Below, piece after piece: positions 8,583 to 43,328 of a stretch of 64,000 nucleotides of DNA. The notes beneath the pieces are model-generated. The model saw nothing but the letters and a program-made list of their open reading frames with translations, did not search any database and was not told the origin of the DNA. Source of the stretch: a virus (Duplodnaviria > Heunggongvirae > Uroviricota > Caudoviricetes); the IMG/VR virus record IMGVR_UViG_2713896899_000007, positions 7,041 to 71,040 of that record, one strand, 5' to 3'. The translations under genes and the position numbers were made by a program. Position 1 is the first letter of the stretch; the number at the start of each line of letters is the position of its first letter.

Positions 8583-9236
8583 ATATTTGCATCAGTTGCT
8601 CTTTGGCGTCAGGGTCTGCCTTATCCTGGCTTGGATCGTAGACTTTATCTGTTACGACTGGTCTTCCAATCCTGAGTTGCAAACCCTCCATGAACGCCTT
8701 CACAGCCTCGCCATCCGCCTGGGACGCACGGGCGACTTGTAAGTTGCGGACATCCTCTTCCGCACGCAGACGGTCTATATTGCGACTGAGCATCCAGAAC
8801 ATCGTGAGAGGTATGTTCAATAGCTCTAATGGCGACACGGCGTAGTGAGCAACTACACGACTGAAATAGAATCCGAGATCTATTGAGACGGTCCTTGTCC
8901 CGGATTCATCACGGGAAATTACTTTGCCCCTTCGCCAGCCGCTTTTTCGTTTTCTTCATCAATCACTTCCATAGCGAAGGTGAAGATCTGCTGGAGTTGC
9001 GGAACAGTCAGTTTTTCAAGAATTTCGTCAGGTACTGAAGGGATAACCTTACGAACCAGATCTGCATAAGCTGTCACTTGCTCAACAGGAGACATGTTCA
9101 TGAGATCTTTTCCTTCCATCTGCTTGATGGAAACGAACAGACCTACCGTCATTTCAACGATGGGATATTCCTGACCGCCAAATTTGATGCTTTTCTTCGG
9201 AGGCAGAATGGAATCTAGATCGAGTAATTTGGTCAT
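8569..9236 (-). CDS. tail assembly chaperone, -1 frameshift product (G-T-like)
   Basis: The -1 frame is open from the GAAAAAG site (8942-8948) through ORF 8569..8838. That ORF lacks its own ATG (its first codon is GTG). My frame arithmetic (codon low ends 0 mod 3 going to 1 mod 3) equals a -1 shift. Confidence 0.6.
8919..9236 (-). CDS. tail assembly chaperone (lambda G-like)
   Basis: 105 aa acidic protein directly upstream of the tape measure gene. AAGGA RBS. Confidence 0.7.
   Translation of the reverse strand: MTKLLDLDSILPPKKSIKFGGQEYPIVEMTVGLFVSIKQMEGKDLMNMSPVEQVTAYADLVRKVIPSVPDEILEKLTVPQLQQIFTFAMEVIDEENEKAAGEGAK
8942..8948 (-). promoter_or_regulatory. candidate -1 ribosomal slippery site GAAAAAG
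   Basis: A-rich heptamer 7 codons before the G stop. Its position is analogous to the lambda G/GT frameshift. Confidence 0.5.
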
Positions 9237-9291
9237 TGGTTAAAATCCTTTTAAAAGAGAGGCCCATCCTGAGCCTCTGCTTAATTACTGA

Positions 9292-10038
9292 TTAATCTGC
9301 GGGGTTAATCGTTACTGACTTAGTTGCCTTCTTACCACCGCTATTGCTGGTGAAGGAGATATTTGTAGAACCCTGCGCCACACCACGTACCAGACCCGTT
9401 TGATCTACCGTGGCCTTTTCCTGGTCTTCGGATTCCCAAACACCGGTTTTGTCTGCGGCATCAGCTGGAGTGATTTCGGCTGTCAGTTGCACAGTTTCTC
9501 CAGCTTTTACGGTTGGAGATTCCGGTGAGATCGACACAGTTTTTACCGGTTTAGGGCCGCTCATTCTTCCCAGAACGCCTTCGTCATCAGGGTACGCACT
9601 GAACTGAACAGAGAACACACGAACATCATCAGACTGGTAAGTCATGGTGAAGTTACCTGCGGTCGCAGCTTTCGGGATAGTCAGAACGTAGTCGGTAGTG
9701 TCCTGCGGAGTCAGAACCAGCTCTTTGGCTACGTCGATCAGGTTGACACCCTGTGCGGAAGTGATGGTCACCGCATTGTCGTCTTCGTTCAGAGTAGACC
9801 CCGGCATCAGATCGACCATATTTTTCAACACAGACTCGGCCAGCGGCGCAGTAATGGTAATGTTACGACCCTGCACCAGCTCGGACATAATTGTCTGGCC
9901 GTGCTGGTCGACGGTGACTTTCAGCGTTTCAGTGGCTACTTCAACCTGAACACCACCTTTGGTGTAACCCAAATCCACACCACCAAACGACACCTTACAG
10001 GCACCAAGTTTGATGTTTTTTACATGGGTATTAGACAT
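9292..10038 (-). CDS. major tail protein with C-terminal Ig-like (Big_2) domain
   Basis: The C-terminal VSISPESPTVKAGETVQLTAEITPADAADKTGVWESEDQEKATVDQTGLVRGVAQGSTNISF is a Big_2 pattern. ATG 10038 has a GGAG RBS. Confidence 0.85.
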   Translation of the reverse strand: MSNTHVKNIKLGACKVSFGGVDLGYTKGGVQVEVATETLKVTVDQHGQTIMSELVQGRNITITAPLAESVLKNMVDLMPGSTLNEDDNAVTITSAQGVNLIDVAKELVLTPQDTTDYVLTIPKAATAGNFTMTYQSDDVRVFSVQFSAYPDDEGVLGRMSGPKPVKTVSISPESPTVKAGETVQLTAEITPADAADKTGVWESEDQEKATVDQTGLVRGVAQGSTNISFTSNSGGKKATKSVTINPAD

Positions 10039-22443: not shown

Positions 22444-24003
22444 ATGACTGTTCGGATTGTATCTAACGCAGTTAATGCGCTTATTTCTGGCGCAGATGAC
22501 AAGGTAAAGCAACTGGTGCAGCAAATGTTGAGCTACGAAGTCGAGACTGGCGACTGGAAGGGCACAAGCACGATGTTCAACTGGAGTAAAAACTCGTTCC
22601 CTGCTGGCTTTGCCAAGCCTGTAGCGGCGAACTTGAACAAGGCGGGCATCAAATGTGTTCATATCCGCAAAGACAAAGCCCCGGCGCTTGGTAAACCAAA
22701 TCCGGCGGTTAACCCATTCCCATACAATCCTGATTATGCGTATCAGGATCAGACTGTGGAAACACTGGTTCGAGAGGGAATGATGATTGCGCAGATCGCT
22801 ACTGGTGGCGGGAAATCTAACGTTGCCTGCAAAGCAGCTGCACGTATCGGTCGAATGACATTATTTTTAACAACCCGCTCTGTTCTGATGTTTCAAATGG
22901 CCGAAAACTTCCAGAGATCCATCGACTACCGCGCCGAAAATGGCGAACCGTGGTTAAAAGACCAAAAGGTTGGAGTCATTGGCTCGGGTGAGTTCCAGGT
23001 ATCACGACATATCAACGTCGCTACAGTTCAAACTCTTGCAAGTTTCCTCGAAGAACCACCACGCGATGCAACACCAGATAAGAAAAGCTACCACCTCAAA
23101 CGTCGGGAGTTGGTGAAACGCTTCCTTTCAAGTGTCTCTCTTCTTATTCTGGAAGAGGCGCATGAGTCTTCAGGCTCAAATTTCTATGACATCGCCAGAT
23201 TATGTGTGAACGCAGACTATCGTCTGGCGCTTACAGCCACGCCGTTCATGAAGGATTCGACGGAAGCCAACATGCGCCTGATGGCGGTGGCCGGGCGAAT
23301 TGAAATTAAAGTCACAGAAAAGTACCTGATTGATCGAGGCATTCTGGCAAAGCCGTACTTCCTTTATCATAAAGTTGCCTACAAACCAGACGAGGCCAGA
23401 ATCAAGGCAGAACTTGCCAACAAACACCTCAATTTTAGAGTAGGTATGAGTACTGCCTACCAAAAGGCTTATCAGTTGGGGATCGTGTATAATTTGGGAC
23501 GTAACGAGGCCATTGTTCGCGAAGCATTGCTCTATAAGCAACATTCTCTCAATTGTATGACTCTGGTTCGCCTTAAACGCCACGGGCAAATCCTGATGGA
23601 AATGATGAAAGAGTCCGGCCTTAGAGTTGACTTCATCTATGGGGAATCTAACCAGGCGACAAGGCAAGCAAAGCTGAACAGTTTAGCGTCTGGAGAAATA
23701 GATGTTTTAATAGGCTCGACTATTCTGGATGTCGGTGTTGATGTGCCAAGCGTTGGTGCGGTCATTCTTGCTGGTGGTGGGAAAGCAGAAGTTGAAATGA
23801 GGCAGCGTGTCGGTCGTGGCTTACGAGCCAAGAAGAATCAGGCAAACGTGTGTTTTATCACTGATTTCATTGACACTAGCAACAAATACCTGTTGTCTCA
23901 CTCTTATGAGCGAAAACACATCATCGACACCACACCTGGCTTTGCAGAAGGTGTATTGCCTATTGATGGCGCATTCGATTTTGGAGTTCTGAAACGAGAT
24001 TAG
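22444..24003 (+). CDS. SF2 DEAD/DEAH-box helicase
   Basis: Motif I ATGGGKS, motif II LILEEAHE, motif III LTATP, motif VI QRVGRGLR. AAGGAAAGAGG RBS. Confidence 0.85.
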   Translation: MTVRIVSNAVNALISGADDKVKQLVQQMLSYEVETGDWKGTSTMFNWSKNSFPAGFAKPVAANLNKAGIKCVHIRKDKAPALGKPNPAVNPFPYNPDYAYQDQTVETLVREGMMIAQIATGGGKSNVACKAAARIGRMTLFLTTRSVLMFQMAENFQRSIDYRAENGEPWLKDQKVGVIGSGEFQVSRHINVATVQTLASFLEEPPRDATPDKKSYHLKRRELVKRFLSSVSLLILEEAHESSGSNFYDIARLCVNADYRLALTATPFMKDSTEANMRLMAVAGRIEIKVTEKYLIDRGILAKPYFLYHKVAYKPDEARIKAELANKHLNFRVGMSTAYQKAYQLGIVYNLGRNEAIVREALLYKQHSLNCMTLVRLKRHGQILMEMMKESGLRVDFIYGESNQATRQAKLNSLASGEIDVLIGSTILDVGVDVPSVGAVILAGGGKAEVEMRQRVGRGLRAKKNQANVCFITDFIDTSNKYLLSHSYERKHIIDTTPGFAEGVLPIDGAFDFGVLKRD

Positions 24004-24005
24004 TT

Positions 24006-24284
24006 ATGAGCGAAAAGAAAACAACTTATTGCCAAGTGGCATTGTCTGATAAGGCCAATGAAAAACTTGGAAAATTTCAAATAAAACTCAAAGAGAAAAA
24101 AATCAAGATGTCTAAGGCTGAAGTTATCAATGCCATTCTGGAGACGATGACTATGGCTGAATTTGACAAAGTCACATCTGCCGTTGGGGTTTCCGCTAAG
24201 ACGCGTGAGAAAATCATGCGCATCTATGAAAACTCCAATATGACAAAAAAAGATCTAGAGGAAATACTGAGCAGGTTGCCGTAA
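24006..24284 (+). CDS. small hypothetical protein (possible ribbon-helix-helix)
   Basis: 92 aa. Starts 2 nt after the helicase stop. KMSKAEVINAILE resembles an RHH helix. AT-rich. Confidence 0.4.
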   Translation: MSEKKTTYCQVALSDKANEKLGKFQIKLKEKKIKMSKAEVINAILETMTMAEFDKVTSAVGVSAKTREKIMRIYENSNMTKKDLEEILSRLP

Positions 24285-24349
24285 CATTTCATATTTACCC
24301 CCTATCAACTAATTCTATGATGTGCTCACTTGTTAGAAAGGAGCACATC

Positions 24350-24916
24350 ATGAGTTGGTTAAAAGAATTATCATTTGTTGACACCACTGGCGCTAAGAAA
24401 AATCATTCTTTCTGGAAAGTCAGCGATCCTTCTGATTTTCTTGTTGGTGCTAATGCTGCTTTTGAATTGCTTAACTTTTATCAACGTTATCCTGAAATGA
24501 AACACAGTCCACTCCTGTACAGAATAACAAACGATATGAATAGGTCTGGTTTATTATCAAGTGAGTCAGCGAAAGGCTTTTTTAGCAAAATTACGCCACA
24601 CATATCATTCGATGCAGCAAACGAAATTGATTGTCTATCCACGAAACCTCAAGAACAATTATCTGTACCACCTGAGAAAAAACAAAGACGAATTGCCAGC
24701 ATTGAAAATATATCGAAAGAGCTTCGCACAACAACGTTGAGGCTGCTGAACTTTCTTACGCTACTTAATTGGATAGATGATCAAACATTGATTCCATCAA
24801 CCGATGCGTTGGATAACAGAGTACTTAGGCTGAACAAAAAATCGCAATTTGGTTTTGTGTTCACCAAAAAAGGTGAAGATTTAATCAAAAGAAAATATAG
24901 ATTATTGAATGATTAA
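24350..24916 (+). CDS. hypothetical protein
   Basis: ATG 24350 has an AGGAG RBS. Followed by hairpin acatgcaggtg...cacctgcatgt. No recognisable domain. Confidence 0.55.
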   Translation: MSWLKELSFVDTTGAKKNHSFWKVSDPSDFLVGANAAFELLNFYQRYPEMKHSPLLYRITNDMNRSGLLSSESAKGFFSKITPHISFDAANEIDCLSTKPQEQLSVPPEKKQRRIASIENISKELRTTTLRLLNFLTLLNWIDDQTLIPSTDALDNRVLRLNKKSQFGFVFTKKGEDLIKRKYRLLND

Positions 24917-25061
24917 TAGTCTACATGCAGGTGTATGAGAGCACCTGCATGTGATATTCATCACATTTTTTGAAGTACACACCTCCGGCTGAAAAAATTT
25001 CTTGATTGGCAGAACGATATTTGTAGGCTTTTCAATTGATAACTAAGGTCGGATACTGTAG

Positions 25062-25550
25062 ATGAGTATTTCCATAAACAAAATAATTAACTCTTTACGA
25101 CATAAAATATCACATGGAAAAGATGTTCTTTTTAAAGACAAATATTATCTATTCAACCTAGAGTTGTACAAATGCACAAAATTTTATATCACTCGGAACC
25201 GTAAATATTCAGCTTCAATCACAAAAGACATGAAGAAAATCTCTTCAGAAGAGTACTTCATATCACATATTTATATCTACCCATTTAAATTAGAACCATT
25301 AAATATAATTCTTCCAACAATAAAAGGGGTTGAACTTGAAGGTTATACTTTAAGCTCTAACTTTAATGATATGGGTGTACAAAAACCAGGGACAAGGTCA
25401 TACTACGCCTACAAAGTAAAATGCAATAACTACAACGCACTTAACATGCTAATCAGCAAACTTGAAACGGAGATAGTCGAAGGAAATCTAAATGATGATC
25501 ATGAAAAATTAGAACAAATAGAAAAACTTAGAAAGTGTGATGTTAAATAA
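25062..25550 (+). CDS. hypothetical protein (Lys/Asn/Ile/Tyr-rich)
   Basis: 162 aa ORF, first gene of a 3-gene AT-rich operon. Confidence 0.5.
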   Translation: MSISINKIINSLRHKISHGKDVLFKDKYYLFNLELYKCTKFYITRNRKYSASITKDMKKISSEEYFISHIYIYPFKLEPLNIILPTIKGVELEGYTLSSNFNDMGVQKPGTRSYYAYKVKCNNYNALNMLISKLETEIVEGNLNDDHEKLEQIEKLRKCDVK

Positions 25551-25565
25551 TTGGATTATCATGAT

Positions 25566-26165
25566 ATGAAAATGAAAATTTCGTTACTCCTTGCTTGTAT
25601 ATGCCTCCCGGCGTTTTCCGCCAACGCATTATCAGATTTCGTCTCTGACATGCAAAAAACGTACAGCATGTTTACCTCCGAAGACGTAGTAGAATACAAA
25701 TCACGAGGTCTGAATCAGCCAGTTTGGTTCAGATTCTCAGACAACGCAGAAGAAACAATACTTAATGGAGGAAAAGAAAGATTACGGTTGCAAATTAACG
25801 GGACCGCTGTACCAGAAAACGTTAATGTAAACTCTGACGAAGCCATGAAGCCATCTGGAATTGTTTTAGAAGTTCAAGACGGCACACTTTACTGTGATGA
25901 AATGGCTACAACAGGTTGCCAAGTAAACATTAGGGTTGGCAATGAAGAGCCTATCGTTACTTACGCCAAGGCTGAAGGGAATACAAGTGGAAAGGTATTG
26001 TTTATCGATGAAAATATCTCAAAACGTATCGTTCGTGACATACAGAAAACAGCTAACTCTAAATCCGTCGATAAAAAAATCTATGTTGAGGTTCCCTTCT
26101 TTGTCGTTGGTAACAAAGAATTTAAATTTGGGTTGCTGAAAACACCTCTAAGAGTATCAGAATGA
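25566..26165 (+). CDS. secreted/periplasmic hypothetical protein
   Basis: The N-terminus MKMKISLLLACICLPAFSANA looks like a Sec signal peptide. ATG 25566 is preferred over TTG 25551. Confidence 0.6.
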   Translation: MKMKISLLLACICLPAFSANALSDFVSDMQKTYSMFTSEDVVEYKSRGLNQPVWFRFSDNAEETILNGGKERLRLQINGTAVPENVNVNSDEAMKPSGIVLEVQDGTLYCDEMATTGCQVNIRVGNEEPIVTYAKAEGNTSGKVLFIDENISKRIVRDIQKTANSKSVDKKIYVEVPFFVVGNKEFKFGLLKTPLRVSE

Positions 26166-26686
26166 GAACATTGGACATCACCTACGGCATACCGGCTGAA
26201 GTCTGGCCGCGAGACTACGAACATGCTGAAAACATACTTATGTTCTGGCGGAAGAACAACATTCCTGTAAGAGTCACGCTTGAAGACGGTCAGGTGTTTT
26301 GCATGTACGTTCAGGGGACAATGCCTTCCCGCAATAAGCTAGATTTATGCCCGCTTCCATATGATAAAGAAAATCGTATAAGACTCCCACTTGAGCGCAT
26401 TAGCACAATTGAATCAGGTGTAATCGATGGCATTGCTCGCGAGTTCAAAGGTAGGCTAACAATACATCCAGACTATGTTGACAATCAGCCATCACGCCGT
26501 GACTTTTTTGCGATATGTCGCAAGGCTTATCAAAACGACCAATCTATAAGGGTCTACATGGCAGACGGTCGTGAAATTGAAGGGGTGTCAAGAGGCGTTG
26601 ATGCTTGCCAGGTCACTCTTAAGTTAGAAGACGGCAGAAAAATACTTGTTTTCTTCGATTGGGTTGAACGAATCCTTCCATTTTAA
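26162..26686 (+). CDS. hypothetical protein with two Sm/LSm-like repeats (pattern level only)
   Basis: ATGA overlap with the upstream gene. VRVTLEDGQVF..YVQG and IRVYMADGREIEGVSRGVDACQVTLKLEDGRKILVFFDWVERI fit the Sm-fold pattern V.V.L.dG..i.G...g.D...l.L. Confidence 0.5.
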   Translation: MRTLDITYGIPAEVWPRDYEHAENILMFWRKNNIPVRVTLEDGQVFCMYVQGTMPSRNKLDLCPLPYDKENRIRLPLERISTIESGVIDGIAREFKGRLTIHPDYVDNQPSRRDFFAICRKAYQNDQSIRVYMADGREIEGVSRGVDACQVTLKLEDGRKILVFFDWVERILPF

Positions 26687-26697
26687 ATCTATAAGGG

Positions 26698-26728
26698 TAA
26701 TAACCGGCTAAGCCCGGTTATTATTTTA
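26698..26728 (+). terminator. rho-independent terminator
   Basis: gtaataaccgg / ccggttattat stem followed by a T-run. Confidence 0.75.
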
Positions 26729-26878
26729 CATGCCATTCATTTAAAACTCTTTCAATGCCACTCTGTATAAATATATAAGGTTAAAGGCCCGAATTGATTA
26801 TTTATTTAGGGAACACCTTCGACGATCTCGCTTTTATTTCTAGGACTTTCACCCCTGCAAAAAATTTAAAAAAAACAC

Positions 26879-26906
26879 TTGCAATCTTTTTTCACGTATC
26901 GATAAT
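26879..26906 (+). promoter_or_regulatory. sigma70-type promoter (TTGCAA-16 nt-GATAAT)
   Basis: Read directly from the sequence. About 70 nt upstream of the 26982 start, in an AT-rich gap. Confidence 0.55.
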
Positions 26907-26981
26907 TGAACTCGTCGAAAGCGAGCTGGCTAACGACAGTAAAAAATAAATTCATTTTAATTTTTCGTAAGGATGTCCATC

Positions 26982-27632
26982 ATGGCTAACATTATCATTT
27001 CTAAAAAATCCATCATTGAAGCTGCTTCCATTGTATCCGATGAACTGCGCGAAAAAGCAGATCTGGCAACTCAAACATATAACGAACATTATAAAAATGG
27101 TACGCACACTAAAGCAGACAAAGCAAATATGCAAGCTGCGACCACTAAACTTGCTTACTTCATCAACAACGTCGTAAACGCAGTAGAAGACGAAAAATTA
27201 TGCTCTGTTTTCTACTATGCGATTAAAGCAAGCAAACAAGCGCCAGAAGTATTTTTCCGTGATGCTATGACTAATAGTTATTCACTGGAAAAACTGGTTT
27301 ATCTGGTTAAATCCATTAAAGCTGGTAAATGCGTTTATTCCGTCGCTGATATGTCAGGATCTCGTGTATTCGCTTTAATCGATATGATTAACGACGAGAT
27401 CGACACGTTCACCAATGGCGCTGTTTTCGATTTAATGAATGAAGCTAAAAAAGCGTGCGAAATTAAATTGGACGCTGGCTATACTCAAGCCAACCAGTTG
27501 ATCAATCTTTGCGAACGTCTCGGACTTGTTGAAAAAGTCAAAGGAGCTGGGAGCGCCAAAGCTGGTACGCAGCAATATCGCTTCATTAAAAATGATTTCT
27601 ACAATTATTTAGCTGATGCTTTTAAAGCGTAA
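26982..27632 (+). CDS. hypothetical protein (possible C-terminal winged helix)
   Basis: ATG 26982 lies 8 nt after AAGGA. 216 aa. YTQANQLINLCERLGLVEKVKG is HTH-like. Confidence 0.55.
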   Translation: MANIIISKKSIIEAASIVSDELREKADLATQTYNEHYKNGTHTKADKANMQAATTKLAYFINNVVNAVEDEKLCSVFYYAIKASKQAPEVFFRDAMTNSYSLEKLVYLVKSIKAGKCVYSVADMSGSRVFALIDMINDEIDTFTNGAVFDLMNEAKKACEIKLDAGYTQANQLINLCERLGLVEKVKGAGSAKAGTQQYRFIKNDFYNYLADAFKA

Positions 27633-27681
27633 TTAATGAAATCAAGCGCCCACTATGGGCGCTTTAAAGGAGCTTTCAAAA

Positions 27682-27885
27682 ATGGTCAGCTATGACAAGA
27701 TCCGCGCGGAATATCGCGCAAAGTATCGCGCTTATAAACTGGAATTAATCGACGATTTGATCGCGCAACGCGACCAATTAAATTTTACGTTTTCTGATTT
27801 GCTTAACAGTAAACGAGATTGTAAGCGTAAGCGTGAATATTTACGTTTAAGCGCATTAATCGGAAAACTTCAAAATTCTATTTAA
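27682..27885 (+). CDS. small basic coiled-coil hypothetical protein
   Basis: ATG 27682 follows an AAGGAG RBS. The track start at 27655 lies inside a hairpin. Confidence 0.45.
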   Translation: MVSYDKIRAEYRAKYRAYKLELIDDLIAQRDQLNFTFSDLLNSKRDCKRKREYLRLSALIGKLQNSI

Positions 27886-27905
27886 TTTTTTTAAGGAGCT
27901 TAATC

Positions 27906-28133
27906 ATGGTTATTTTCATCTCTGGCGTAAATATCAATAATCATACTCTTGTTTATGATATTGCTGGTTTAGCTGGATATGCTCTAAGTTCTGAAGTGGT
28001 TGATGAAACAACGTTTAAAATAAACATCAATGACGTAGAACATAGAGCGCGCGTAGGAATCAATGAAGCTGATGTTACTTTAATGCTTCAAGAATTTTTA
28101 AACGCTGGCTTTAATATTCACTTAGAAAAATAA
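27906..28133 (+). CDS. small hypothetical protein
   Basis: 75 aa, AAGGAG RBS, followed by a strong terminator. Confidence 0.5.
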   Translation: MVIFISGVNINNHTLVYDIAGLAGYALSSEVVDETTFKININDVEHRARVGINEADVTLMLQEFLNAGFNIHLEK

Positions 28134-31578: not shown

Positions 31579-31614
31579 TTAAACAACATGTTTTCTTATT
31601 GGTGTTATTATCGC
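31579..31614 (-). promoter_or_regulatory. conserved early promoter/leader element
   Basis: Minus strand reads GCGATAATAACACCAATAAGAAAACATGTTGTTTAA. Confidence 0.55.
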
Positions 31615-31928
31615 AATAACGCACAGGCGAAAAAGGATTTTATTCCGGTGAATGTGGTTTTGGCAGTGAGTTTTCAGGTTCAGTACCGAGTACACTTTTT
31701 ACATTATTCTGATTTAGTGGCCGAAGATGGCTGGTGGGCAGAATAATCCTCTCCCCGAAAACCTACTGAAATCGATTGTGACCCGCTGGCTGTCTGGCAC
31801 AATTACGCTGTAGCTGGGCATTCAGAGGGAATCCAGCGGTAAGTTCGCCTGCACGTGAGCGCCTCTCTTCTTACCGCACATTACAGGTGGGTAGCCGCAA
31901 CTCTCCCTCACGCTATACCGGTACGCCA

Positions 31929-32060
31929 CCGTTCCTGAACCGGCATCGAGCCTTTTCCCGAAATCCACACAGGCAACTCTACCGTTTCCCTGAAAATCCC
32001 CAGCCGTTCCCCGAAGGCAACCCAGCCGTTTCTGTAGCGGGATGCAGCCTTTCCCTGTAT
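31929..32060 (+). repeat. iteron cluster B, six copies phased at 22 bp
   Basis: Copy starts at 31929, 31951, 31982, 32004, 32026 and 32048. Consensus is cAGCCGTTTCCCtGAAAA. Confidence 0.75.
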
Positions 32061-32119
32061 GGACCGAAGGCTGACCGTAGGGGTGTTACGGGGGATAAAA
32101 TCAGGAGTTGAATAAATAC

Positions 32120-32990
32120 GAAAAAGGAGGCGACACCCCTACTTCCCTCTCCACTTATACATACCAGGCTTCTTCGCTATACATGTTGTGTTTTCTTCGT
32201 GTTTTATCTGTCTCAACCTCTCTATAGGCGTTAATGCTCACTCCTACCAGAACGTTCTATACGGCGACTATTTCTGTTGGTGGATTAGGTGTGTTGTTTT
32301 CTCTGTCGGTGTATGTGGTTTCGTTCGTTTTGCGGTGGTTCTTCTATGGGGTGTTCTCGTCGTTTTGGTGATTGTTCTTCTCCGTATATGGAGTAATGGC
32401 AGGTGGGCGATTGCTTTCGTTATTGTGTTTGAGTTGTTTGTCTGGAGTGTGTGAAAGGCTTTTGTAGTTATTCGTGTATTGGGTAATGGCGTTTCCCGTG
32501 ATTGTTATGTTTCGTGTCTTTTGGGATTGAGAGAAACCTTGCGGTTACAGGCTTCGTTGGGGTTTCAGTGATTCTGGTGTTTCTTCGCTGTTTGGGGAAT
32601 GGCGTGTCGTGGGTATCGCGCGTGTGAATGTTTTCGGATTGCCTGTGAAAGTTAGGTTGGTTATCCGGTAGCCTGGGAAGAAGAGGTGGGTCTTTTCGGT
32701 AGCCTGCCATAAAGAGGTTGGTTGTTTTTGGGAATGGCATGTGTGTTATTTAGTTGTTTTGTTATGCCTGAAAATAAGTTGTTTATATGGTTGTGTAACG
32801 CAACGGGAGCGATTTTGAGCGTGTGTTTTTGTTGGTAGTGTGTTGAGTCGTCTGTGGTGAAAATTGGACGCTGTGGAGCTGTCTGCTGCGTAGGATTACG
32901 GGTATAAGAAGTGATGTGTGAAAACGTCAATTTTTTAGACCAAATCGGGAGAAAGCGTTGATGTTTCGTTGATCTGTTATTTAGTTGTTT
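32120..32990 (-). ncRNA. candidate long C+A-rich untranslated transcript (hypothetical)
   Basis: A family promoter at 32974-33006 points into a stretch with no credible ORF. The plus strand is 72-85% G+T in the three 60-nt lines I counted. The ends are not defined. Confidence 0.25.
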
Positions 32991-33006
32991 TCTTATTGGT
33001 ATAAAC
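32974..33006 (-). promoter_or_regulatory. conserved early promoter/leader element with no downstream ORF
   Basis: Minus strand reads GTTTATACCAATAAGAAAACAACTAAATAACAG. A partial second copy lies at 32745-32765. Confidence 0.5.
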
Positions 33007-33136
33007 AACTGTAACCTATTGATATTTAAGGATGTGATTGCAGGCATGGAAGGGGAGTAGTGGCGATCAACGGATTCTTATAGAAAAGAATCAAATTGTG
33101 ACCGCCATTATCAACGGTTTGAATATGTTTGCAGAT

Positions 33137-33447: not shown

Positions 33448-33517
33448 CAAAACAAGTTGTTTTCTTATGTGGCTTATTATCTCTAACAACAAAAGGCAGA
33501 AAACAAATTGTTTTAGG
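33448..33517 (-). promoter_or_regulatory. early promoter with two AAAACAAnTTGTTTT palindromes flanking GATAAT
   Basis: Minus strand reads CCTAAAACAATTTGTTTTCTGCC...GAGATAATAAGCCACATAAGAAAACAACTTGTTTTGG. Confidence 0.6.
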
Positions 33518-33636
33518 TACTGTGTAAATCAGAAGGGATTGTGTCTATATGAAAATGCCCGGCGTGTTGCCGGGCATTGCGAAGAGAGGTTGTTTAATTA
33601 CTTAACCTGGTGGCCAGGTTTAGCACCGGCATCCGG
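33496..33636 (-). repeat. diverged copy of metG 3' end (12 codons + stop) + terminator + phage palindrome
   Basis: Aligns without gaps to 34364-34504 with 18 mismatches. The remnant encodes [12 protein letters not shown]. Confidence 0.9.
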
Positions 33637-34315
33637 CTGCAGGATGGGAGGTTACGTTCGCGCTATGTTGATATTCTGATTGACGCCATTTGTGCCAAAT
33701 CATCTCCTTATAGGATTCATATTGCGTTCGGTACTCTGGCTTCAAGTCAGATATGCCTTTATTCACTACCGCTCGTACGTTTACTAATAATTCGTGCTCA
33801 ATGCCTTTACTCTCTAAATATTCTACAACACCAGCATCGGGGCCAATTGCCCTGCCGTTAAAGACCATTTCCAGCATAAGCTCTGTTTCAGCAAAATAGA
33901 TAGGTGAGGAACCAGGTGCACACAGCTTAATAGCAGTAAGATTGTCCAACAGGTCGGCCAATTTAATCATTCGCGTCTGCATATCCAACGTCTTTTGCAA
34001 TTCGCGAACATTAATAATGAATCTCGCAAGACTATCGCCGTCGTCTGGTTTGGCAACGTTTGCCAGCGCCAGTACCATCTCAGCTACACGATTCCCGAAA
34101 TACTCGCGTACCATTTCGATAGTGATATGGGTATCTTCAATAACACCATGTAATAATGCAGCAGCCTGCATTTCGACAGTGCCTCCGTGCCAAGCAACAA
34201 TCTCACGCACAGAAACTGGGTGTGTAACGTAGTCTTCCCCCGTATATCTACGCTTCTTACCTACACCACCATACACTCCAACGGCAAACATATGAGCTTT
34301 ATCAACAATCGACAT
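33620..34315 (-). CDS. HD-domain (SpoT/Mesh1-like alarmone hydrolase family) protein, HD motif changed to HG
   Basis: GEDYVTHPVSVREIV...AALLHGVIEDT. Paralog of 42687..43328. ATG 34315 has a GGAG RBS. The C-terminal tail runs into the metG remnant. Confidence 0.75.
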   Translation of the reverse strand: MSIVDKAHMFAVGVYGGVGKKRRYTGEDYVTHPVSVREIVAWHGGTVEMQAAALLHGVIEDTHITIEMVREYFGNRVAEMVLALANVAKPDDGDSLARFIINVRELQKTLDMQTRMIKLADLLDNLTAIKLCAPGSSPIYFAETELMLEMVFNGRAIGPDAGVVEYLESKGIEHELLVNVRAVVNKGISDLKPEYRTQYESYKEMIWHKWRQSEYQHSANVTSHPAAGCRC

Positions 34316-34363
34316 AATTTGCTCCATTATTTTGTTAATACTGTTACTCTAACTGATAATAGA

Positions 34364-34504
34364 ACGCAGAAAACAAATTGTTTTAGGGGCTGAGTAAATC
34401 AGAAGGGATTGCGTCTATATGAAAATGCCCAGCAATACGCTGGGCATTGTGAAGAATGGTTGTTTAGTTACTTAACTTGGTGGCCTGGTTTAGCACCAGC
34501 ATCC
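34364..34504 (-). repeat. phage palindrome + metG terminator + metG 3' end (partner of 33496-33636)
   Basis: See the alignment for the partner repeat. The terminator stem is aatgcccagc/gctgggcatt (34422-34446). Confidence 0.9.
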
Positions 34505-36501
34505 GGGCTTAACAGGAAGATATCTTTCCCGCCGGGGCCAGCAGCCATCACCATGCCTTCGGAGATACCGAAGCGCATTTTACGCGGAGCCAGGTTAGCC
34601 ACCATAATTGTGTGACGACCAATCAGTGCCTGTGGGTCTGGATAAGCAGAACGGATGCCTGAGAAGACATTACGCTTTTCACCACCGAGATCCAGTGTCA
34701 GGCGCAACAGTTTGTCAGAACCTTCAACAAACTCCGCGTTTTCAATCAGCGCCACACGCAGGTCAACTTTGGCGAAGTCGTCAAAGGTGATGGTTTCCTG
34801 AATCGGGTCGTCAGCCAGTGGGCCAGTAACTGGCGCGGCAGTAGCTTTCACTTCTTCTTTGGATGCTTCCACCAGTGCTTCCACCTGTTTCATATCGATA
34901 CGGTTATACAGTGCCTTGAACGGATTCACTTTATGGCCCAGCAGCGGTTGCTGGATACCATCCCAGGTCAGTTCTGTATTCAGGAATGCTTCTGCACGTT
35001 CAGTCAGTTTCGGCAGTACCGGTTTCAGATACGTCATCAGCACGCGGAACAGGTTAATGCCCATAGAGCAAATCGCCTGCAGATCTGCATCGCGACCTTC
35101 CTGCTTCGCCACCACCCACGGAGCCTGTTCATCGACATAGCGGTTAGCCAGGTCAGCCAATGCCATGATTTCACGGATAGCTTTACCAAATTCGCGGCTT
35201 TCCCATGCTTCGCCAATCACTTCAGCGGCATCAGTAAAGGTTTTGTACAGTTGCGGGTCAGCCAGTTCGCTTGCCAGCACGCCGTCAAAACGCTTGTTGA
35301 TAAAGCCTGCATTACGGGAGGCCAGGTTAACCACTTTGTTAACAATATCGGCATTCACTCGCTGAACGAAATCCTCCAGGTTGAGATCGATATCATCAAT
35401 GCGCGAAGAGAGTTTCGCAGTGTAGTAGTAACGCAGGCTGTCAGCGTCAAAATGATTCAGCCAGGTGCTGGCTTTAATAAAGGTGCCGCGAGACTTGGAC
35501 ATCTTCGCACCGTTCACCGTCACATAGCCATGAACAAACAGGTTGGTCGGCTTGCGGAAGTTGCTGCCTTCCAGCATGGCAGGCCAGAACAGACTGTGGA
35601 AGTAAACGATATCTTTACCGATGAAGTGGTACAGCTCGGCGGTGGAGTCTTTCTTCCAGTATTCATCGAAGCTGGTGGTATCGCCGCGCTTGTCGCACAG
35701 ATTCTTGAAGGAACCCATGTAGCCAATCGGTGCGTCCAGCCAGACGTAGAAATATTTACCCGGCGCGTTCGGAATTTCAAAACCGAAGTAAGGTGCGTCG
35801 CGGGAGATATCCCACTGTTGCAGACCAGATTCAAACCACTCCTGCATTTTGTTTGCCACCTGCTCCTGCAACGCACCGCTGCGGGTCCATGCCTGCAACA
35901 TTTCGCTGAAAGAGGGCAGATCAAAGAAGAAGTGTTCAGAATCACGCATTACCGGGGTAGCACCAGAAACCACCGATTTCGGCTCGATCAGTTCAGTCGG
36001 GCTGTAGGTCGCGCCACAAACTTCACAGTTATCGCCGTATTGATCTGGCGCTTTACATTTCGGGCAGGTGCCTTTCACAAAACGATCCGGCAGGAACATG
36101 CCTTTTTCCGGGTCGTACAACTGAGAGATAGTGCGGTTTTTAATAAAACCGTTCTCTTTCAGGCGAGTATAAATAAGCTCAGACAGCTGGCGGTTCTCTT
36201 CGCTGTGCGTCGAGTGATAGTTGTCATAGCTGATGTTAAAGCCTGCGAAATCAGTCTGGTGTTCCTGACTCATTTCGCCAATCATCTGCTCCGGTGTGAT
36301 ACCAAGTTGCTGTGCTTTCAGCATGATCGGCGTACCGTGGGCATCGTCGGCACAGATGAAATTAACCTCGTGGCCGCGCATTCGCTGGTAACGAACCCAG
36401 ACATCAGCCTGGATGTGCTCCAGCATATGGCCGAGGTGGATTGAGCCGTTAGCGTACGGCAGCGCGCACGTCACCAGAATTTTCTTCGCGACTTGGGTCA
36501 T
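34468..36501 (-). CDS. metG: methionine--tRNA ligase
   Basis: 677 codons from ATG 36501 ([25 protein letters not shown]...KMSKS...). Near-identical to E. coli MetG as I recall it. The 43-codon upstream extension in the track is spurious. Confidence 0.97.
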
Positions 36502-36658
36502 AGTAGGCATTACTTCTTTGTAGTGAAAAGGGGCTTGATAGTAACAAAATGGCCTTATGTCTGCCATGTGATAACAGCATTTCTCATAAATGATTAAATG
36601 TCGTAGCTGGAGTACACTACAAGGCGACAATTGCGCAAATTAAAATAAAGGAGACGGG

Positions 36659-37759
36659 ATGAGCGAGTCCAAATCGCCGGATGCCCTGAGAGCAATGGTA
36701 GCCGGTACGCTGGCTAATTTTCAGCACCCAACCCTGAAACACAACCTGACTACGCTTAAAGCGTTACACCATGTTGCGTTGATGGATGACACACTGCATG
36801 TCGAACTAATCATGCCTTTCGTGTGGAATAAGCCTTTTGAAGACCTGAAAGAGCAATGTAGTGGTGATCTGCTCCGTATCACTGGCGCAAAGGCTATTGA
36901 CTGGAAGCTGTCGTACAACATTGCCACGCTTAAGCGCGTCAAAAACCAACCAGGCATTAATGGTGTTAAGAATATTATCGCCGTAAGCTCAGGCAAGGGC
37001 GGTGTAGGCAAATCGTCCACAGCAGTAAACTTGGCACTGGCGTTGGCTGCTGAAGGTGCGAAAGTTGGTATTTTGGATGCCGATATCTACGGGCCATCAA
37101 TACCAACCATGCTGGGCGCGGAAAACCAACGTCCAACCTCACCGGACGGTACTCACATGGCACCTATCATGTCTCATGGCCTGGCAACCAATTCAATTGG
37201 CTATCTGGTCACCGACGACAATGCAATGGTGTGGCGTGGACCGATGGCCAGCAAGGCGCTGATGCAGATGTTGCAGGAAACACTGTGGCCTGATCTGGAC
37301 TATCTCGTTCTCGATATGCCGCCGGGCACTGGTGATATTCAGTTGACGCTGGCGCAGAACATTCCTGTAACTGGTGCGGTTGTGGTAACTACGCCGCAAG
37401 ACATCGCGCTGATCGATGCGAAGAAAGGCATTGTGATGTTCGAAAAAGTCGAAGTGCCAGTACTGGGTATCGTTGAAAACATGAGTGTGCATATTTGCAG
37501 TAACTGCGGTCATCACGAGCCAATTTTTGGCACCGGTGGCGCACAGAAACTGGCCGAGAAATACAACACGCAGTTGTTAGGCCAAATGCCACTTCATATC
37601 TCTCTTCGTGAAGATCTGGATAACGGAACACCAACCGTTATTAGTCGTCCAGATAGTGAATTTACGGCTATTTATCGTGACCTCGCAGATCGCGTTGCTG
37701 CCCAAATGTATTGGCAAGGTGAAGTAATACCTGGCGAAATCGCATTCCGCGCAGTGTGA
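36659..37759 (+). CDS. apbC: Fe-S cluster carrier ATPase Mrp/ApbC
   Basis: AVSSGKGGVGKSS P-loop and a CSNCGHH motif. Divergent from metG as in the E. coli chromosome. Confidence 0.95.
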   Translation: MSESKSPDALRAMVAGTLANFQHPTLKHNLTTLKALHHVALMDDTLHVELIMPFVWNKPFEDLKEQCSGDLLRITGAKAIDWKLSYNIATLKRVKNQPGINGVKNIIAVSSGKGGVGKSSTAVNLALALAAEGAKVGILDADIYGPSIPTMLGAENQRPTSPDGTHMAPIMSHGLATNSIGYLVTDDNAMVWRGPMASKALMQMLQETLWPDLDYLVLDMPPGTGDIQLTLAQNIPVTGAVVVTTPQDIALIDAKKGIVMFEKVEVPVLGIVENMSVHICSNCGHHEPIFGTGGAQKLAEKYNTQLLGQMPLHISLREDLDNGTPTVISRPDSEFTAIYRDLADRVAAQMYWQGEVIPGEIAFRAV

Positions 37760-37762
37760 TAA

Positions 37763-37787
37763 AAAGGTGGTGCATTGCACCACCTAA
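37763..37787. terminator. bidirectional hairpin between mrp and humD-like gene
   Basis: aggtggtgca t tgcaccacct. Confidence 0.6.
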
Positions 37788-37796
37788 ACAGTTCTC

Positions 37797-38186
37797 CTAC
37801 ATCACAGGACAATCATCAAACTCGCCACTTCTTGCGTCGTTGATAATGTGAGTGATCACACCAAACACGGCATTGCTGCCCGTGCATCCATCGTCATCCT
37901 TTGGCAATGCTTCCTTCTTACCAGTTCTTAAATCCTCCAGATGCTGACGTGGATACTTCCGGTATCTTTTTACGCGATATTCCCCATCCAGAGCGCATAC
38001 AAGCAGAGAACCATCAACCGGGGTAAGTGAGGAATCGACCACCAGCAATGCGCCCTGCAATATTCCCTCACGATGATGGCTGTCAGCCGCTCTCATGAAG
38101 TAGGTCGCTGAAGGATGTCTAATTATCTGCTGATCAAGAGAAATACGGCTCTCAGCATAATCCGCCGCAGGAGAAGGGAAGCCCAT
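37797..38186 (-). CDS. humD: UmuD'-like S24 peptidase-fold protein lacking the cleavable N-terminus (phage P1 HumD-like)
   Basis: Starts MGFPSPAADY, which aligns to the residues just after the UmuD Cys24-Gly25 cleavage site. The Ser (ADSH) and Lys (VKRY) positions are retained. A LexA box lies upstream. Confidence 0.8.
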   Translation of the reverse strand: MGFPSPAADYAESRISLDQQIIRHPSATYFMRAADSHHREGILQGALLVVDSSLTPVDGSLLVCALDGEYRVKRYRKYPRQHLEDLRTGKKEALPKDDDGCTGSNAVFGVITHIINDARSGEFDDCPVM

Positions 38187-38202: not shown

Positions 38203-38222
38203 TACTGTTCATTTATACAGTA
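38203..38222 (-). promoter_or_regulatory. LexA (SOS) box TACTGTATAAATGAACAGTA
   Basis: Perfect CTG-N10-CAG with TA-rich spacer, 17 nt upstream of the humD-like ATG and overlapping -10-like TATACT/TATAAA. Confidence 0.8.
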
Positions 38223-38358
38223 TACATGAAAGAAGCTCACTCAGTGCAACTGATCGGTACATAGCACCAGACAAAGGAACATTATTTTCTCGAACAAGAA
38301 AAGGTAGAAAACAAATTGTTTAAGGCCACAGCTAGTGGCCTTAATGGAGAAGGGATGC

Positions 38359-42148: not shown

Positions 42149-42690
42149 TACGATGCCTCTAACTTGTCTAACTCTTTCAGCCCTTCACGTACCGCGTTCA
42201 CAATGCGTTCCAGATACTGGTATTTCGGGTTTGGTACCGTTGGCCAGTCGGCATACCACGGATCATCACCAAAGAGATTCAGTAGTTTGTTACCGACGCC
42301 GAAACAGCAGCAGCTTTCTTTTACGTCATCGGCGTTTTCCGCCTCGTCCCACATTTCGCGAGCCAGTACGGCGTCTATTTCTCTCTCTCTTCGTAACTTT
42401 ATGATTTCTGACTTCACGAAAAGCAGATTTGCATCGTTGTCATCGTCGACCGTGCTTCGCAGTTGAGGGTCGAAATAGCCGATTAGATACTCGTTGCTGA
42501 CCCGCTTAATGAACGTCTGCACATCATCACCGCCCATAGCAAACCAAGCCGCAGTCCACGCTTTTCCGTAGCAGGTGATGGTGATTCTTCCCTTACCAGG
42601 TTCGTAGTTTTCAATCATCACTCGAACCGGATCGAGGCGTTCCAGATCCGTCAGCACAAAGGAAAGAACATCTATTTTTTCGATCTTCAT
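42148..42690 (-). CDS. hypothetical protein
   Basis: ATG 42690 overlaps the HD gene stop (ATGA). GGGAGG RBS. Confidence 0.55.
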   Translation of the reverse strand: MKIEKIDVLSFVLTDLERLDPVRVMIENYEPGKGRITITCYGKAWTAAWFAMGGDDVQTFIKRVSNEYLIGYFDPQLRSTVDDDNDANLLFVKSEIIKLRREREIDAVLAREMWDEAENADDVKESCCCFGVGNKLLNLFGDDPWYADWPTVPNPKYQYLERIVNAVREGLKELDKLEAS

Positions 42691-43328
42691 GCAGCCTCCC
42701 ACGCGCTCCAGATCAGCGATTTGTGTTTTTCATAACGTTTGATGTGTACCGGTTTCAGAAGCGCAATACCTTCAGTGACTTTCGCCATTGCGCTTAATAA
42801 CAACGGGTGTTCTATACCTATCCTCTCCATGTACTCGACAACATCAGCGTTGGCACCAATCTCCTTCCCGTTAAAAAGTACGTCCAGCATCAGCTCTTTC
42901 TCTGCAAGGTAGATAGCTGAAAACTCAGGATCGCGACTCACGATAGAAGAGGTATTGTCGAGCAGGTCAGCCAGCTTGATCATGCGCGTCTGCATGTCGA
43001 GATTTTGCTCCAGCTCCCGGACATTGATGATGAAACGCTGTATTCGATTGCCGTCTTCTGGCCTTGCGATGTTGGTCAGAGCCTGAACCATTTCAGCTAC
43101 GCGCTCACCGAAGTGATCACGAACCATCTCTATGGTTACATTGGTGTCTTCGACCACATCATGCAGAAGCGCCGCGATTTGCATCTCCACGGTTCCGTCA
43201 TGCAATGCAACAATCTCTCGGACAGCAACCGGGTGGTTGATGTAGTCTTCGCCGGTATATTTTCTTTTCTGACCAACGCCACCATGAGCGCCAGCGGCGA
43301 ACATATGTGCTTCGGAAATACTAGACAT
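42687..43328 (-). CDS. HD-domain (SpoT/Mesh1-like small alarmone hydrolase family) protein
   Basis: GEDYINHPVAVREIV...AALLHDVVEDT...RMIKLADLLDN. The HD dyad is intact. Confidence 0.8.
   Translation of the reverse strand: MSSISEAHMFAAGAHGGVGQKRKYTGEDYINHPVAVREIVALHDGTVEMQIAALLHDVVEDTNVTIEMVRDHFGERVAEMVQALTNIARPEDGNRIQRFIINVRELEQNLDMQTRMIKLADLLDNTSSIVSRDPEFSAIYLAEKELMLDVLFNGKEIGANADVVEYMERIGIEHPLLLSAMAKVTEGIALLKPVHIKRYEKHKSLIWSAWEAA

Follow-up and report, generated by a model that had tools for sequence, protein, structure and literature searches.

The DNA considered here is a 64,000-nucleotide (nt) stretch of a Caudoviricetes virus, positions 7,041 to 71,040 of IMG/VR record IMGVR_UViG_2713896899_000007, and is referred to as the window throughout. 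It belongs to an SSU5-like phage-plasmid and carries, among phage genes, a complete metG gene for methionyl-tRNA synthetase (MetRS) and, divergent from it, an apbC (mrp) gene for an iron-sulfur (Fe-S) cluster carrier ATPase. Comparison with plasmids, phages and chromosomes makes it rather probable that this pair is a long-resident auxiliary self-sufficiency module of one SSU5-like lineage, the pLF82/Cyrano type, and that it was captured, is kept by selection and recombines with the chromosomal locus. A first-pass annotation, made from the sequence of the window alone, had already pointed to the two genes and offered several claims about their origin, which are taken up below where the evidence bears on them.

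The element itself is well placed among known replicons. The 6.5 kb around metG-apbC are 100% identical to the Escherichia coli plasmid p009_B (NZ_CP048306.1, circular, 110,182 bp), and the gene order given for this region in RefSeq (HD-domain protein, metG, apbC, S24 peptidase, toprim protein) agrees with the reading of the open reading frames. Tail, capsid, portal and terminase genes occupy 1-19 kb of the window, and after this structural block come small early genes and then genes for a methylase, RNase HI, Dam, DHFR, ThyA and NrdAB. The structural genes are 81.5% identical at the nt level to the structural region of Salmonella phage SSU5 and 95-97% identical to those of the Escherichia phages CMS-2020a, PhiR41_1 and Cyrano (the last being pLF82), and the backbone stretch at 9.4-34.4 kb is about 94-97% identical to the same three phages. 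SSU5-type structural, terminase and portal genes are thus found on a circular, non-integrated replicon of the ~100-115 kb class, which is what characterizes an SSU5-like phage-plasmid. The same backbone is known from SSU5, pHCM2, pMT1 and the Klebsiella pKpn-type plasmids, and from pLF82, pECOH89 and p09EL50 of E. coli; within this family, the module occurs only in the E. coli-group lineage and in a small Salmonella branch. Cyrano forms virions, as seen by quantitative PCR and electron microscopy, and is an SOS-inducible plasmid of about 5.5 copies per chromosome, which ciprofloxacin induces 39-fold (PMC9928086).

Both sides of the module carry the regulatory motifs of the element. Palindromes of the form AAAACAAnTTGTTT lie at 33449-63, 33500-14, 34370-84, 38308-22 and 43383-96, and the window holds 26 strand-matches where 0.27 are expected, so the promoter palindromes stand where the first-pass annotation had located them. 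Together with the phage genes on both flanks and the identity to p009_B, they confirm its view that the flanks are a single phage-plasmid element and not chromosome, and that the replicon is a plasmid. TAAGTA-type palindromes had likewise been described on both sides; this holds when one or two mismatches are allowed (19 found, 1.5 expected), but not for exact copies, of which there are three, all left of the module.

The metG gene (34468..36501, minus strand) encodes a full-length MetRS of 677 amino acids (aa) that matches an NCBIfam equivalog, the MetG model NF001100, at 1019.8 bits (cutoff 587) over residues 4-677, and its C-terminal tRNA-binding domain matches TIGR00399 at 163 bits (cutoff 117). 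It departs from the K-12 enzyme by eight conservative differences (98.8% aa identity). The motifs HLGH at 22 and KMSKS at 333 and the zinc-knuckle cysteines 146, 149, 159 and 162 are identical to K-12, and so are L13, Y15, W253, Y260, H301, N391, R395 and W461 (mature numbering), which we take, from the E. coli enzyme, to serve the methionine pocket and anticodon recognition. The plasmid gene is therefore predicted to encode a canonical MetRS with aminoacylation function. The apbC gene (36659..37759, plus strand) encodes 366 aa, compared with 369 aa for chromosomal forms, and again matches an NCBIfam equivalog (NF008669, 759.3 bits, cutoff 348). It retains a deviant Walker A motif, GKGGVGKS, at residue 112 and a CXXC motif, CSNC, at residue 280; nearly all of its differences from E. 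coli ApbC spare these motifs and fall either in the N-terminal third or in the C-terminal part, and the product is likewise predicted to be a canonical enzyme. Open reading frames and NCBIfam matches thus agree with the earlier description of an intact metG and a divergent mrp between a phage HD-hydrolase gene and a humD-like gene.

Between the two genes lies a divergent promoter region of 157 bp (36502..36658) without an internal phage palindrome. The first-pass annotation had called it native, and its length is right, but it is not of the E. coli type: in the alignment with E. coli, only about 50 nt adjoining metG and the Shine-Dalgarno region of apbC are conserved, and the centre is of the Citrobacter / Salmonella enterica type, with 77-78% identity to Citrobacter. 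The spacer is identical in four of the five plasmids compared. Downstream of metG, an 80-nt element-specific spacer (34388..34467, minus strand) holds a terminator-like hairpin (34425-34447, -17.6 kcal/mol, z -3.9), followed by UUUUCAU on the metG transcript. A further hairpin (37765..37785, -15.8 kcal/mol, z -4.4) lies between the convergent apbC and humD genes. Because its U-tract is on the humD (minus) strand, opposite apbC, it looks more like a putative humD terminator, and it is missing where a der gene replaces humD. Both hairpins exist and are stable, as had been stated; the further statement that they are the native terminators did not hold, since in the comparison with chromosomal loci neither is homologous to a chromosomal terminator.

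The insertion site can be given almost to the base. The gene order of the lineage follows SSU5 genes 091-100 and 105-109; in the window, genes 091-100 are retained to the right of the module, at 48.5 to 42.2 kb, genes 105 and 109 stand to its left, at 33.4 to 31.9 kb, and the block between the homologues of genes 100 and 105 is variable. At the left edge of the module, the promoter-associated phage palindrome AAAACAAATTGTTTT occupies 34370..34384, and immediately beyond it, at about 34387, the sequence ceases to be homologous to the SSU5 backbone. In the Salmonella SSU5-like plasmid CP053410.1, the homologues of SSU5 genes 103 and 104 enclose the module exactly, and homology with SSU5 is lost where the palindrome finishes, a point equivalent to about 34387 of the window. 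The left junction at a promoter palindrome (34387|34388), predicted from the window alone, thus recurs at the equivalent base of a second plasmid. The homology to the chromosome ends at the stop codons of metG and of apbC. The 80 nt from the palindrome to the metG stop codon, hairpin included, are common to the E. coli-group plasmids and the Salmonella plasmid, and were not found in K-12, Salmonella, the other compared chromosomes or SSU5.

Exchange with host DNA is clearest in the Salmonella plasmid. The metG of CP053410.1 has 98.2% identity to that of S. enterica subsp. arizonae and its apbC 98.9%, and the intervening spacer matches the chromosomal one of S. Kentucky at 98%. Yet the final ~12 nt of metG (TTACTTAAtttg) are of the plasmid type, as are the 80 nt that follow, and the switch to Salmonella sequence falls a few codons inside metG. 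Because a plasmid-type junction is here combined with Salmonella-like gene bodies, the plasmid shows that there was a single ancestral insertion and that homologous recombination has since exchanged its body in the Salmonella branch. The grounds for a common origin are the spacer downstream of metG, the hairpin, the final metG codons and the insertion slot. That the spacer of the Salmonella plasmid is a retained ancestral, Citrobacter-like relic was also considered, and was rejected on its 98% identity to the S. Kentucky chromosome.

Far from being particular to this replicon, the insert is an old, lineage-wide feature annotated in hundreds of records. At an identity of at least 95%, PLSDB holds 189 plasmids with metG-apbC and 186 with portal/terminase, and among 5,426 complete E. 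coli genomes there are 216 records with the former and 216 with the latter. The module is present in essentially every member of the pLF82/Cyrano-type lineage, with E. coli, Shigella sonnei, E. albertii, E. fergusonii and E. marmotae as hosts. It also occurs in 34 IMG/VR loci (~30 contigs), 10 metagenome contigs of about 108-112 kb and four phage records. More widely, 753 PLSDB plasmids match portal/terminase (Klebsiella 301, Enterobacter 90, Yersinia 62, Salmonella 49, others), and among these, metG-apbC is nearly confined to Escherichia and Shigella; one Klebsiella "plasmid" match that was inspected proved to be a chromosomal fragment and was rejected as a carrier. No MetRS was found in SSU5 or in the Klebsiella SSU5-like phages, and the pHCM2 and pMT1 (Yersinia) branches are without the module, so the relatives lacking the insert that the first-pass annotation proposed to look for do exist.

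The chromosomal pair is also retained. All 5,426 complete E. coli genomes have a chromosomal metG-apbC match (5,430 chromosomal places), which settles the question raised earlier of a second, chromosomal metG, and one same-strain plasmid/chromosome pair was checked directly. In the same genomes, none of the 245 places with portal/terminase is a chromosomal integrant; all are on plasmids. Among phage records, 28 have any match to MetRS, and clearly phage-borne copies of the enterobacterial type number only four, all of this lineage, in keeping with the supposition that the enzyme is unusual phage cargo. A candidate for a parallel capture, "Pseudomonas phage Y5" (OQ572407.1, UNVERIFIED), was rejected as an ordinary bacterial chromosome; its metG-apbC neighbours are a glycosyltransferase, SDR reductases and a sulfonate-binding protein. 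Several other MetRS matches in the phage collection are UNVERIFIED short contigs with the look of contaminating bacterial DNA.

The histories of the two genes differ, and neither gene fits the earlier reading of the module as the host's own locus. Against E. coli K-12, metG is a mosaic of 93-95% nt identity, with a synonymous divergence (dS) of 0.24-0.36, and is nested inside Escherichia in the tree. The identity of apbC to K-12 is 81.5-82.8% (dS 1.3-1.7); it forms a long-branched clade sister to Escherichia (bootstrap 100% and 90%) and is as distant from Citrobacter werkmanii as from E. coli. Set against the divergence that each gene shows between E. coli and Salmonella, the contrast between the two is significant (Fisher p = 8e-10). 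Among PLSDB and metagenome copies, the identity of apbC to the window is bimodal, at 96-100% or at 82% and below, with one PLSDB record between. Apart from that record, nothing that could represent a donor of apbC falls between 82% and 96% among the matches listed (80 species, PLSDB, 80 metagenome loci), and no chromosome-type apbC is closer than about 82% among the matches listed (80 species, PLSDB, 70 metagenome loci). The simplest reading is an old capture from an unsampled Escherichia-like or Citrobacter-like lineage, after which metG would have been partly overwritten by E. coli alleles and apbC would have been too diverged to recombine.

The overwriting of metG can be followed along the gene. 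Its identity to K-12 is 87% at the 3' end and reaches 97-100% in patches inside the gene (87-98% per 100 nt in the window copy), the K-12-like patches differ between plasmids, and the K-12-like minority states are clustered along the gene. The four-gamete test fails for 53% of informative site pairs in metG (25 full-length copies) and for 28% in apbC, and in the neighbour-compatibility permutation test the result is 0 of 200 permutations for either gene. Being homologous to an essential chromosomal locus, the cargo recombines with the chromosome. A very recent in-situ conversion in strain AVS0575 was considered and is unsupported: the plasmid metG is 94.2% identical to that of its own chromosome and 94.4% to K-12, and the 269 bp of the longest identical run belong to a region that is conserved in general.

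One 13-kb scaffold, IMGVR_UViG_2740892421_000017 (loci L119, L124 and L138), contains a chromosomal flank, a hybrid metG and plasmid genes. The 3' half of this metG is chromosome-like and its 5' half plasmid-like, and the scaffold then crosses a 10-base gap to a chromosomal metG-apbC-yehE. We did not accept it as proof of integration at metG, given the gap join and the switch inside a repeat; it is less likely to be a real recombinant than a product of assembly or scaffolding at the repeat.

Both genes are, by their pattern of substitution, under strong purifying selection. The pairwise ratio of nonsynonymous to synonymous divergence (dN/dS) between plasmid metG copies is 0.005-0.02, and apbC shows 0 or 1 nonsynonymous change in the first five plasmid-record copies at a dS of up to 0.20. 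Over 25 copies of metG, 19 codons vary in amino acid and 275 synonymously; over 36 copies of apbC, the figures are 9 and 96. Every full-length copy of both genes is open, and partial copies stop at contig edges.

Expression has been recorded for the close relative Cyrano. RNA sequencing of LF82 lysogens gave a prophage background of about 10 normalised reads, above which CYRAN_99, the apbC homologue (annotated "septum site-determining protein"), stood at ~92 reads, ~9-fold background, and was listed by the authors as a moron (PMC9928086). CYRAN_100, the MetRS gene, reached ~16 reads, ~1.6-fold background, and falls in macrophages (PMC9928086). By the 5-fold expression threshold for morons in that study, Cyrano apbC (9-fold) qualifies and metG (~1.6-fold) lies below; MetRS receives no discussion there (PMC9928086). 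The humD neighbour, CYRAN_98, had ~148 reads and rose strongly in macrophages (PMC9928086), which fits the consensus LexA box TACTGTTCATTTATACAGTA at 38203-38222, upstream of humD in the window.

On the left of metG, the window departs from most of its relatives. An HD-domain gene of the RelA/SpoT hydrolase type (33620..34327, minus strand; NCBIfam spoT_relA hydrolase region) adjoins it, and its product is a paralogue of the small alarmone hydrolase PaSpo, with 67.6% aa identity to SSU5_099. The positional PaSpo orthologue lies at 42690-43328 (87% aa identity to SSU5). The HD cassette is bounded by a direct repeat of 180 nt, 81% identical (33457-33636 and 34327-34506), and the second copy of this post-metG unit (33457..33636) includes promoter palindromes and a hairpin as well as, at about 33597-33642, a remnant of the final ~46 nt of metG; of this remnant, 33597-33636 matches the 3' end of K-12 metG by BLAST. 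Because it is flanked by this second unit with its metG relic, the cassette is evidently a later insertion. It adjoins metG in the p009_B-type plasmid and very few others; at an identity of at least 95% it is absent from the 36 other module copies examined, where the usual left neighbour is a CYRAN_101-like gene.

The usual right neighbour is a HumD-family (UmuD-like) gene (37797..38186, minus strand, NCBIfam HumD equivalog), which adjoins apbC in 34 of 37 copies and has the phage palindrome at 38308-38322 upstream of it, as well as the LexA box. The humD of the window is 86-88% identical at the nt level to that of P1 and P7, a likeness that points to possible exchange between P1-like and SSU5-like phage-plasmids. 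In a sub-lineage, comprising E. marmotae plasmid NZ_CP146383.1 and E. coli NZ_CP148383.1, humD is replaced by der (EngA), the gene of an essential ribosome-assembly GTPase, at 8145-9617 of the E. marmotae plasmid locus (L091). The 3' end of bamB accompanies it, and its identity to the E. coli chromosome is about 90%. With der, a second core translation-related gene has been captured at this spot; the replacement is rare, being seen in two of the E. coli genome records. Other right-slot variants were seen in the IMG/VR loci L113 (6592-10224) and L107 (6100-9231): one IMG/VR contig has a gene for a 1,211-aa inverse autotransporter (an intimin/invasin-like adhesin) right of apbC, and in another a deletion puts a DUF4942 methylase block beside apbC.

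The course of events that we propose for the module is as follows. An ancestor of the lineage would have captured a chromosomal fragment of about 3.4 kb that comprised metG and apbC together with the two-way promoter region from which they diverge. This fragment, trimmed nearly to both stop codons, would have entered the backbone directly behind an early-promoter palindrome, with genes 103 and 104 (SSU5 numbering) on its two sides. Later, metG would have been patchworked by E. coli-like segments, and in the Salmonella branch the bodies of the genes would have been overwritten and the element junction kept. The benefit may be an own supply of Met-tRNA charging and Fe-S cluster delivery, for plasmid carriage, for lytic growth or for both, and the module would then belong with the self-sufficiency set formed by NrdAB, ThyA, DHFR, RNase HI and the PaSpo-type hydrolases. 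Several points weigh against this account. The enzymes appear ordinary, so that any benefit must lie in dose or timing. The intactness of metG could be due to nothing more than gene conversion from the chromosomal copy, which is under selection; that of apbC cannot be explained in this way. In LF82 lysogens, the metG transcript barely exceeds the prophage background (PMC9928086). A faster clock on the element, and not great age, could explain part of the divergence of apbC, whose donor lineage is seemingly not among the sampled genomes. Additionally, the chromosomal alleles compared left out E. albertii and E. fergusonii, and the one same-strain plasmid/chromosome pair gave no sign of very recent exchange.

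Other functions for the pair have to be weighed. It is a tentative and not very likely possibility that metG-apbC, together with der and the PaSpo theme, is a selected translation and Fe-S insurance module, guarding Met-tRNA charging and the maturation of the translation apparatus in the course of induction or toxin attack, and that it also acts as a shuttle of metG alleles between Escherichia and Salmonella lineages; the shuttle would work by gene conversion, because the module stays homologous to an essential chromosomal locus. A theme of translation protection, drawn by analogy from PaSpo, is plausible. KacT-type (GNAT) toxins, moreover, act on aminoacyl-tRNA. A KacT-type acetyltransferase toxin is expressed by Cyrano (PMC9928086), and SSU5-family elements encode PaSpo, which strips from tRNA the 3' pyrophosphate added by toxSAS toxins and so counters their modification (PMC11559606). 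On this ground, extra MetRS (with ApbC and, in one sub-lineage, Der) might serve in counter-defence, sustaining the charging of initiator and elongator Met-tRNA and ribosome or Fe-S maturation when tRNA or aminoacyl-tRNA is attacked by abortive-infection toxins of the host or by the element's own toxins, as two PaSpo homologues in the window, one directly beside metG, and the gain of der beside apbC would suggest. We think this unlikely: MetRS cannot reverse the cleavage, pyrophosphorylation or acetylation of tRNA, its sequence suggests no altered properties, metG is weakly transcribed in lysogens, and both the HD gene beside metG and der are confined to the few records given above. It is similarly doubtful that apbC is the selected cargo and metG an adjacent passenger, kept intact mostly by repeated gene conversion from the chromosome. 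The expression levels of the two genes, the high constraint of apbC without import from E. coli and the wealth of chromosome-like patches in metG would fit such a division. A passenger would not be expected to remain intact in 25 of 25 full-length copies and in nearly all annotated PLSDB records, nor to keep an unconverted 3' end with plasmid-specific last codons in frame, a conserved terminator and a conserved 5' leader; deletion variants around the module never take out metG alone.

The first-pass annotation had also speculated that the module acts in cis, as a homology arm for integration. The recombination footprints with chromosomal alleles are clear and agree with this part of the idea, whether the arm served Campbell-type integration, chromosome mobilisation or allele shuttling at metG, and the scaffold described above does link a chromosomal flank to the plasmid through a hybrid metG. 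Such a role is nonetheless quite improbable, given the absence of chromosomal portal/terminase places in the 5,426 genomes, the 10-base-gap join and the assembler-type switch at the repeat in that scaffold, and the selection on the proteins: apbC, at 82%, is too diverged for efficient recombination and yet is constrained as a protein, which an arm would not need. Plasmid-borne second synthetases that give resistance are a known kind, with MupA and MupB models in NCBIfam, and a second MetRS insensitive to a natural MetRS inhibitor, in the manner of mupA/ileS2, would be of that kind. We consider this very improbable; the module MetRS has only weak class-I similarity to MupA/MupB, and differs from K-12 by 4-10 conservative substitutions, several of them common to other Escherichia or Salmonella, with the pocket, HIGH, KMSKS, zinc and anticodon residues all unchanged. 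The least credible explanation, to which we give practically no weight, is a recent pick-up from the current host, a remnant of specialised transduction or a chromosome/prophage misassembly. The gene order and divergent arrangement are indeed those of metG and apbC on chromosomes across the enterobacteria. The same junctions recur, however, in about 190 independently sequenced closed plasmids, the four phage records, and some 30 IMG/VR and 10 metagenome contigs, phage motifs and genes stand on both sides, and apbC is only 82% identical to E. coli; recent accidental capture or misassembly is refuted by these comparative data.

The pair can be set beside several known systems. Full-length aminoacyl-tRNA synthetases are likewise found in jumbo phages and giant viruses, and metG in particular in the 274-kb Microcystis phage MaAM05 and in uncultured phages of more than 630 kb. 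Those are strictly lytic giant genomes and their metG is at 24-29% identity, whereas here a temperate phage-plasmid of 110 kb carries a MetRS nearly identical to that of the host, paired with its chromosomal neighbour and exchanging sequence with the host gene. Like the morons of prophages, the module stands outside the logic of the phage operons, with a promoter region of its own and a terminator at either side; unlike the usual morons, it duplicates essential or core genes of every host and adds no new trait. Plasmid synthetases of the mupA/ileS2 type are also extra-chromosomal duplicates of an essential enzyme, but the active site of the module MetRS looks unaltered, the gene is linked to apbC and to a phage, and we know of no inhibitor involved. 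The variable early region also holds PaSpo, known from SSU5, as a further gene that protects translation; the window has both an orthologue (87% aa) and a second copy beside metG (68% aa). PaSpo belongs to a different protein family and has a demonstrated anti-toxin activity (PMC11559606), which the MetRS/ApbC pair is not known to share.

Both metG and apbC are already annotated in public RefSeq and ENA records. Full-text literature searches found no paper on metG or MetRS in SSU5-like phage-plasmids, and the module is a so far undiscussed case of host-derived auxiliary genes on temperate phages, of which the unusual feature is that it duplicates an essential synthetase and recombines with the original. 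About 4% of complete E. coli genomes (216/5,426) carry the phage-plasmid, among them the Crohn's-associated LF82, O104:H4 and Shigella sonnei, and such strains have second, diverged copies of the synthetase and Fe-S carrier genes, several per cell. If these copies are active, they would offer a test case for why temperate elements keep duplicates of core genes, might affect phenotypes tied to MetRS (antibiotic tolerance, proofreading products, the action of MetRS inhibitors), and would amount to a mobile element trading sequence with an essential chromosomal gene. The metG repeat can, in addition, mislead assemblers and the typing of metG alleles. The module is testable in the existing LF82/Cyrano system.

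The palindromes of the element follow a fixed plan beyond the module. The palindrome AAAACAAnTTGTTTT has 16 sites within 19031-57968 (for example 29260, 31103, 33456, 33507, 34377, 38315, 43389 and 47741) and takes one of two layouts on the minus strand: just after a GATAAT -10-like hexamer and 10-25 nt ahead of the start codon, or directly after a terminator hairpin and ahead of the GATAAT -10-like hexamer. It fits a putative promoter/operator element of the SSU5-like phage family, and the two fixed layouts suggest that one regulator may govern many early promoters. A scan with the sigma-70 consensus gave 9 sites where 6.7 are expected, which is not above chance, and the Rfam, tRNA and tandem-repeat scans of the window gave no matches.

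Two further regions of the window stand out by their composition or gene content. The stretch 31600-33130, about 1.5 kb, has no annotated gene, nor is one annotated there in related plasmids; its similarity to the counterpart in the Salmonella plasmid is 68%. Its core at 32.2-32.9 kb is strongly rich in G and T on the plus strand (GC skew +0.305, AT skew -0.347), and the stretch could be an origin or a long non-coding transcript. The block at 24001-28000 is low in GC (0.35-0.40, compared with ~0.47 elsewhere), carries hypothetical genes on the plus strand together with a transcriptional regulator, and may be a separately acquired island.

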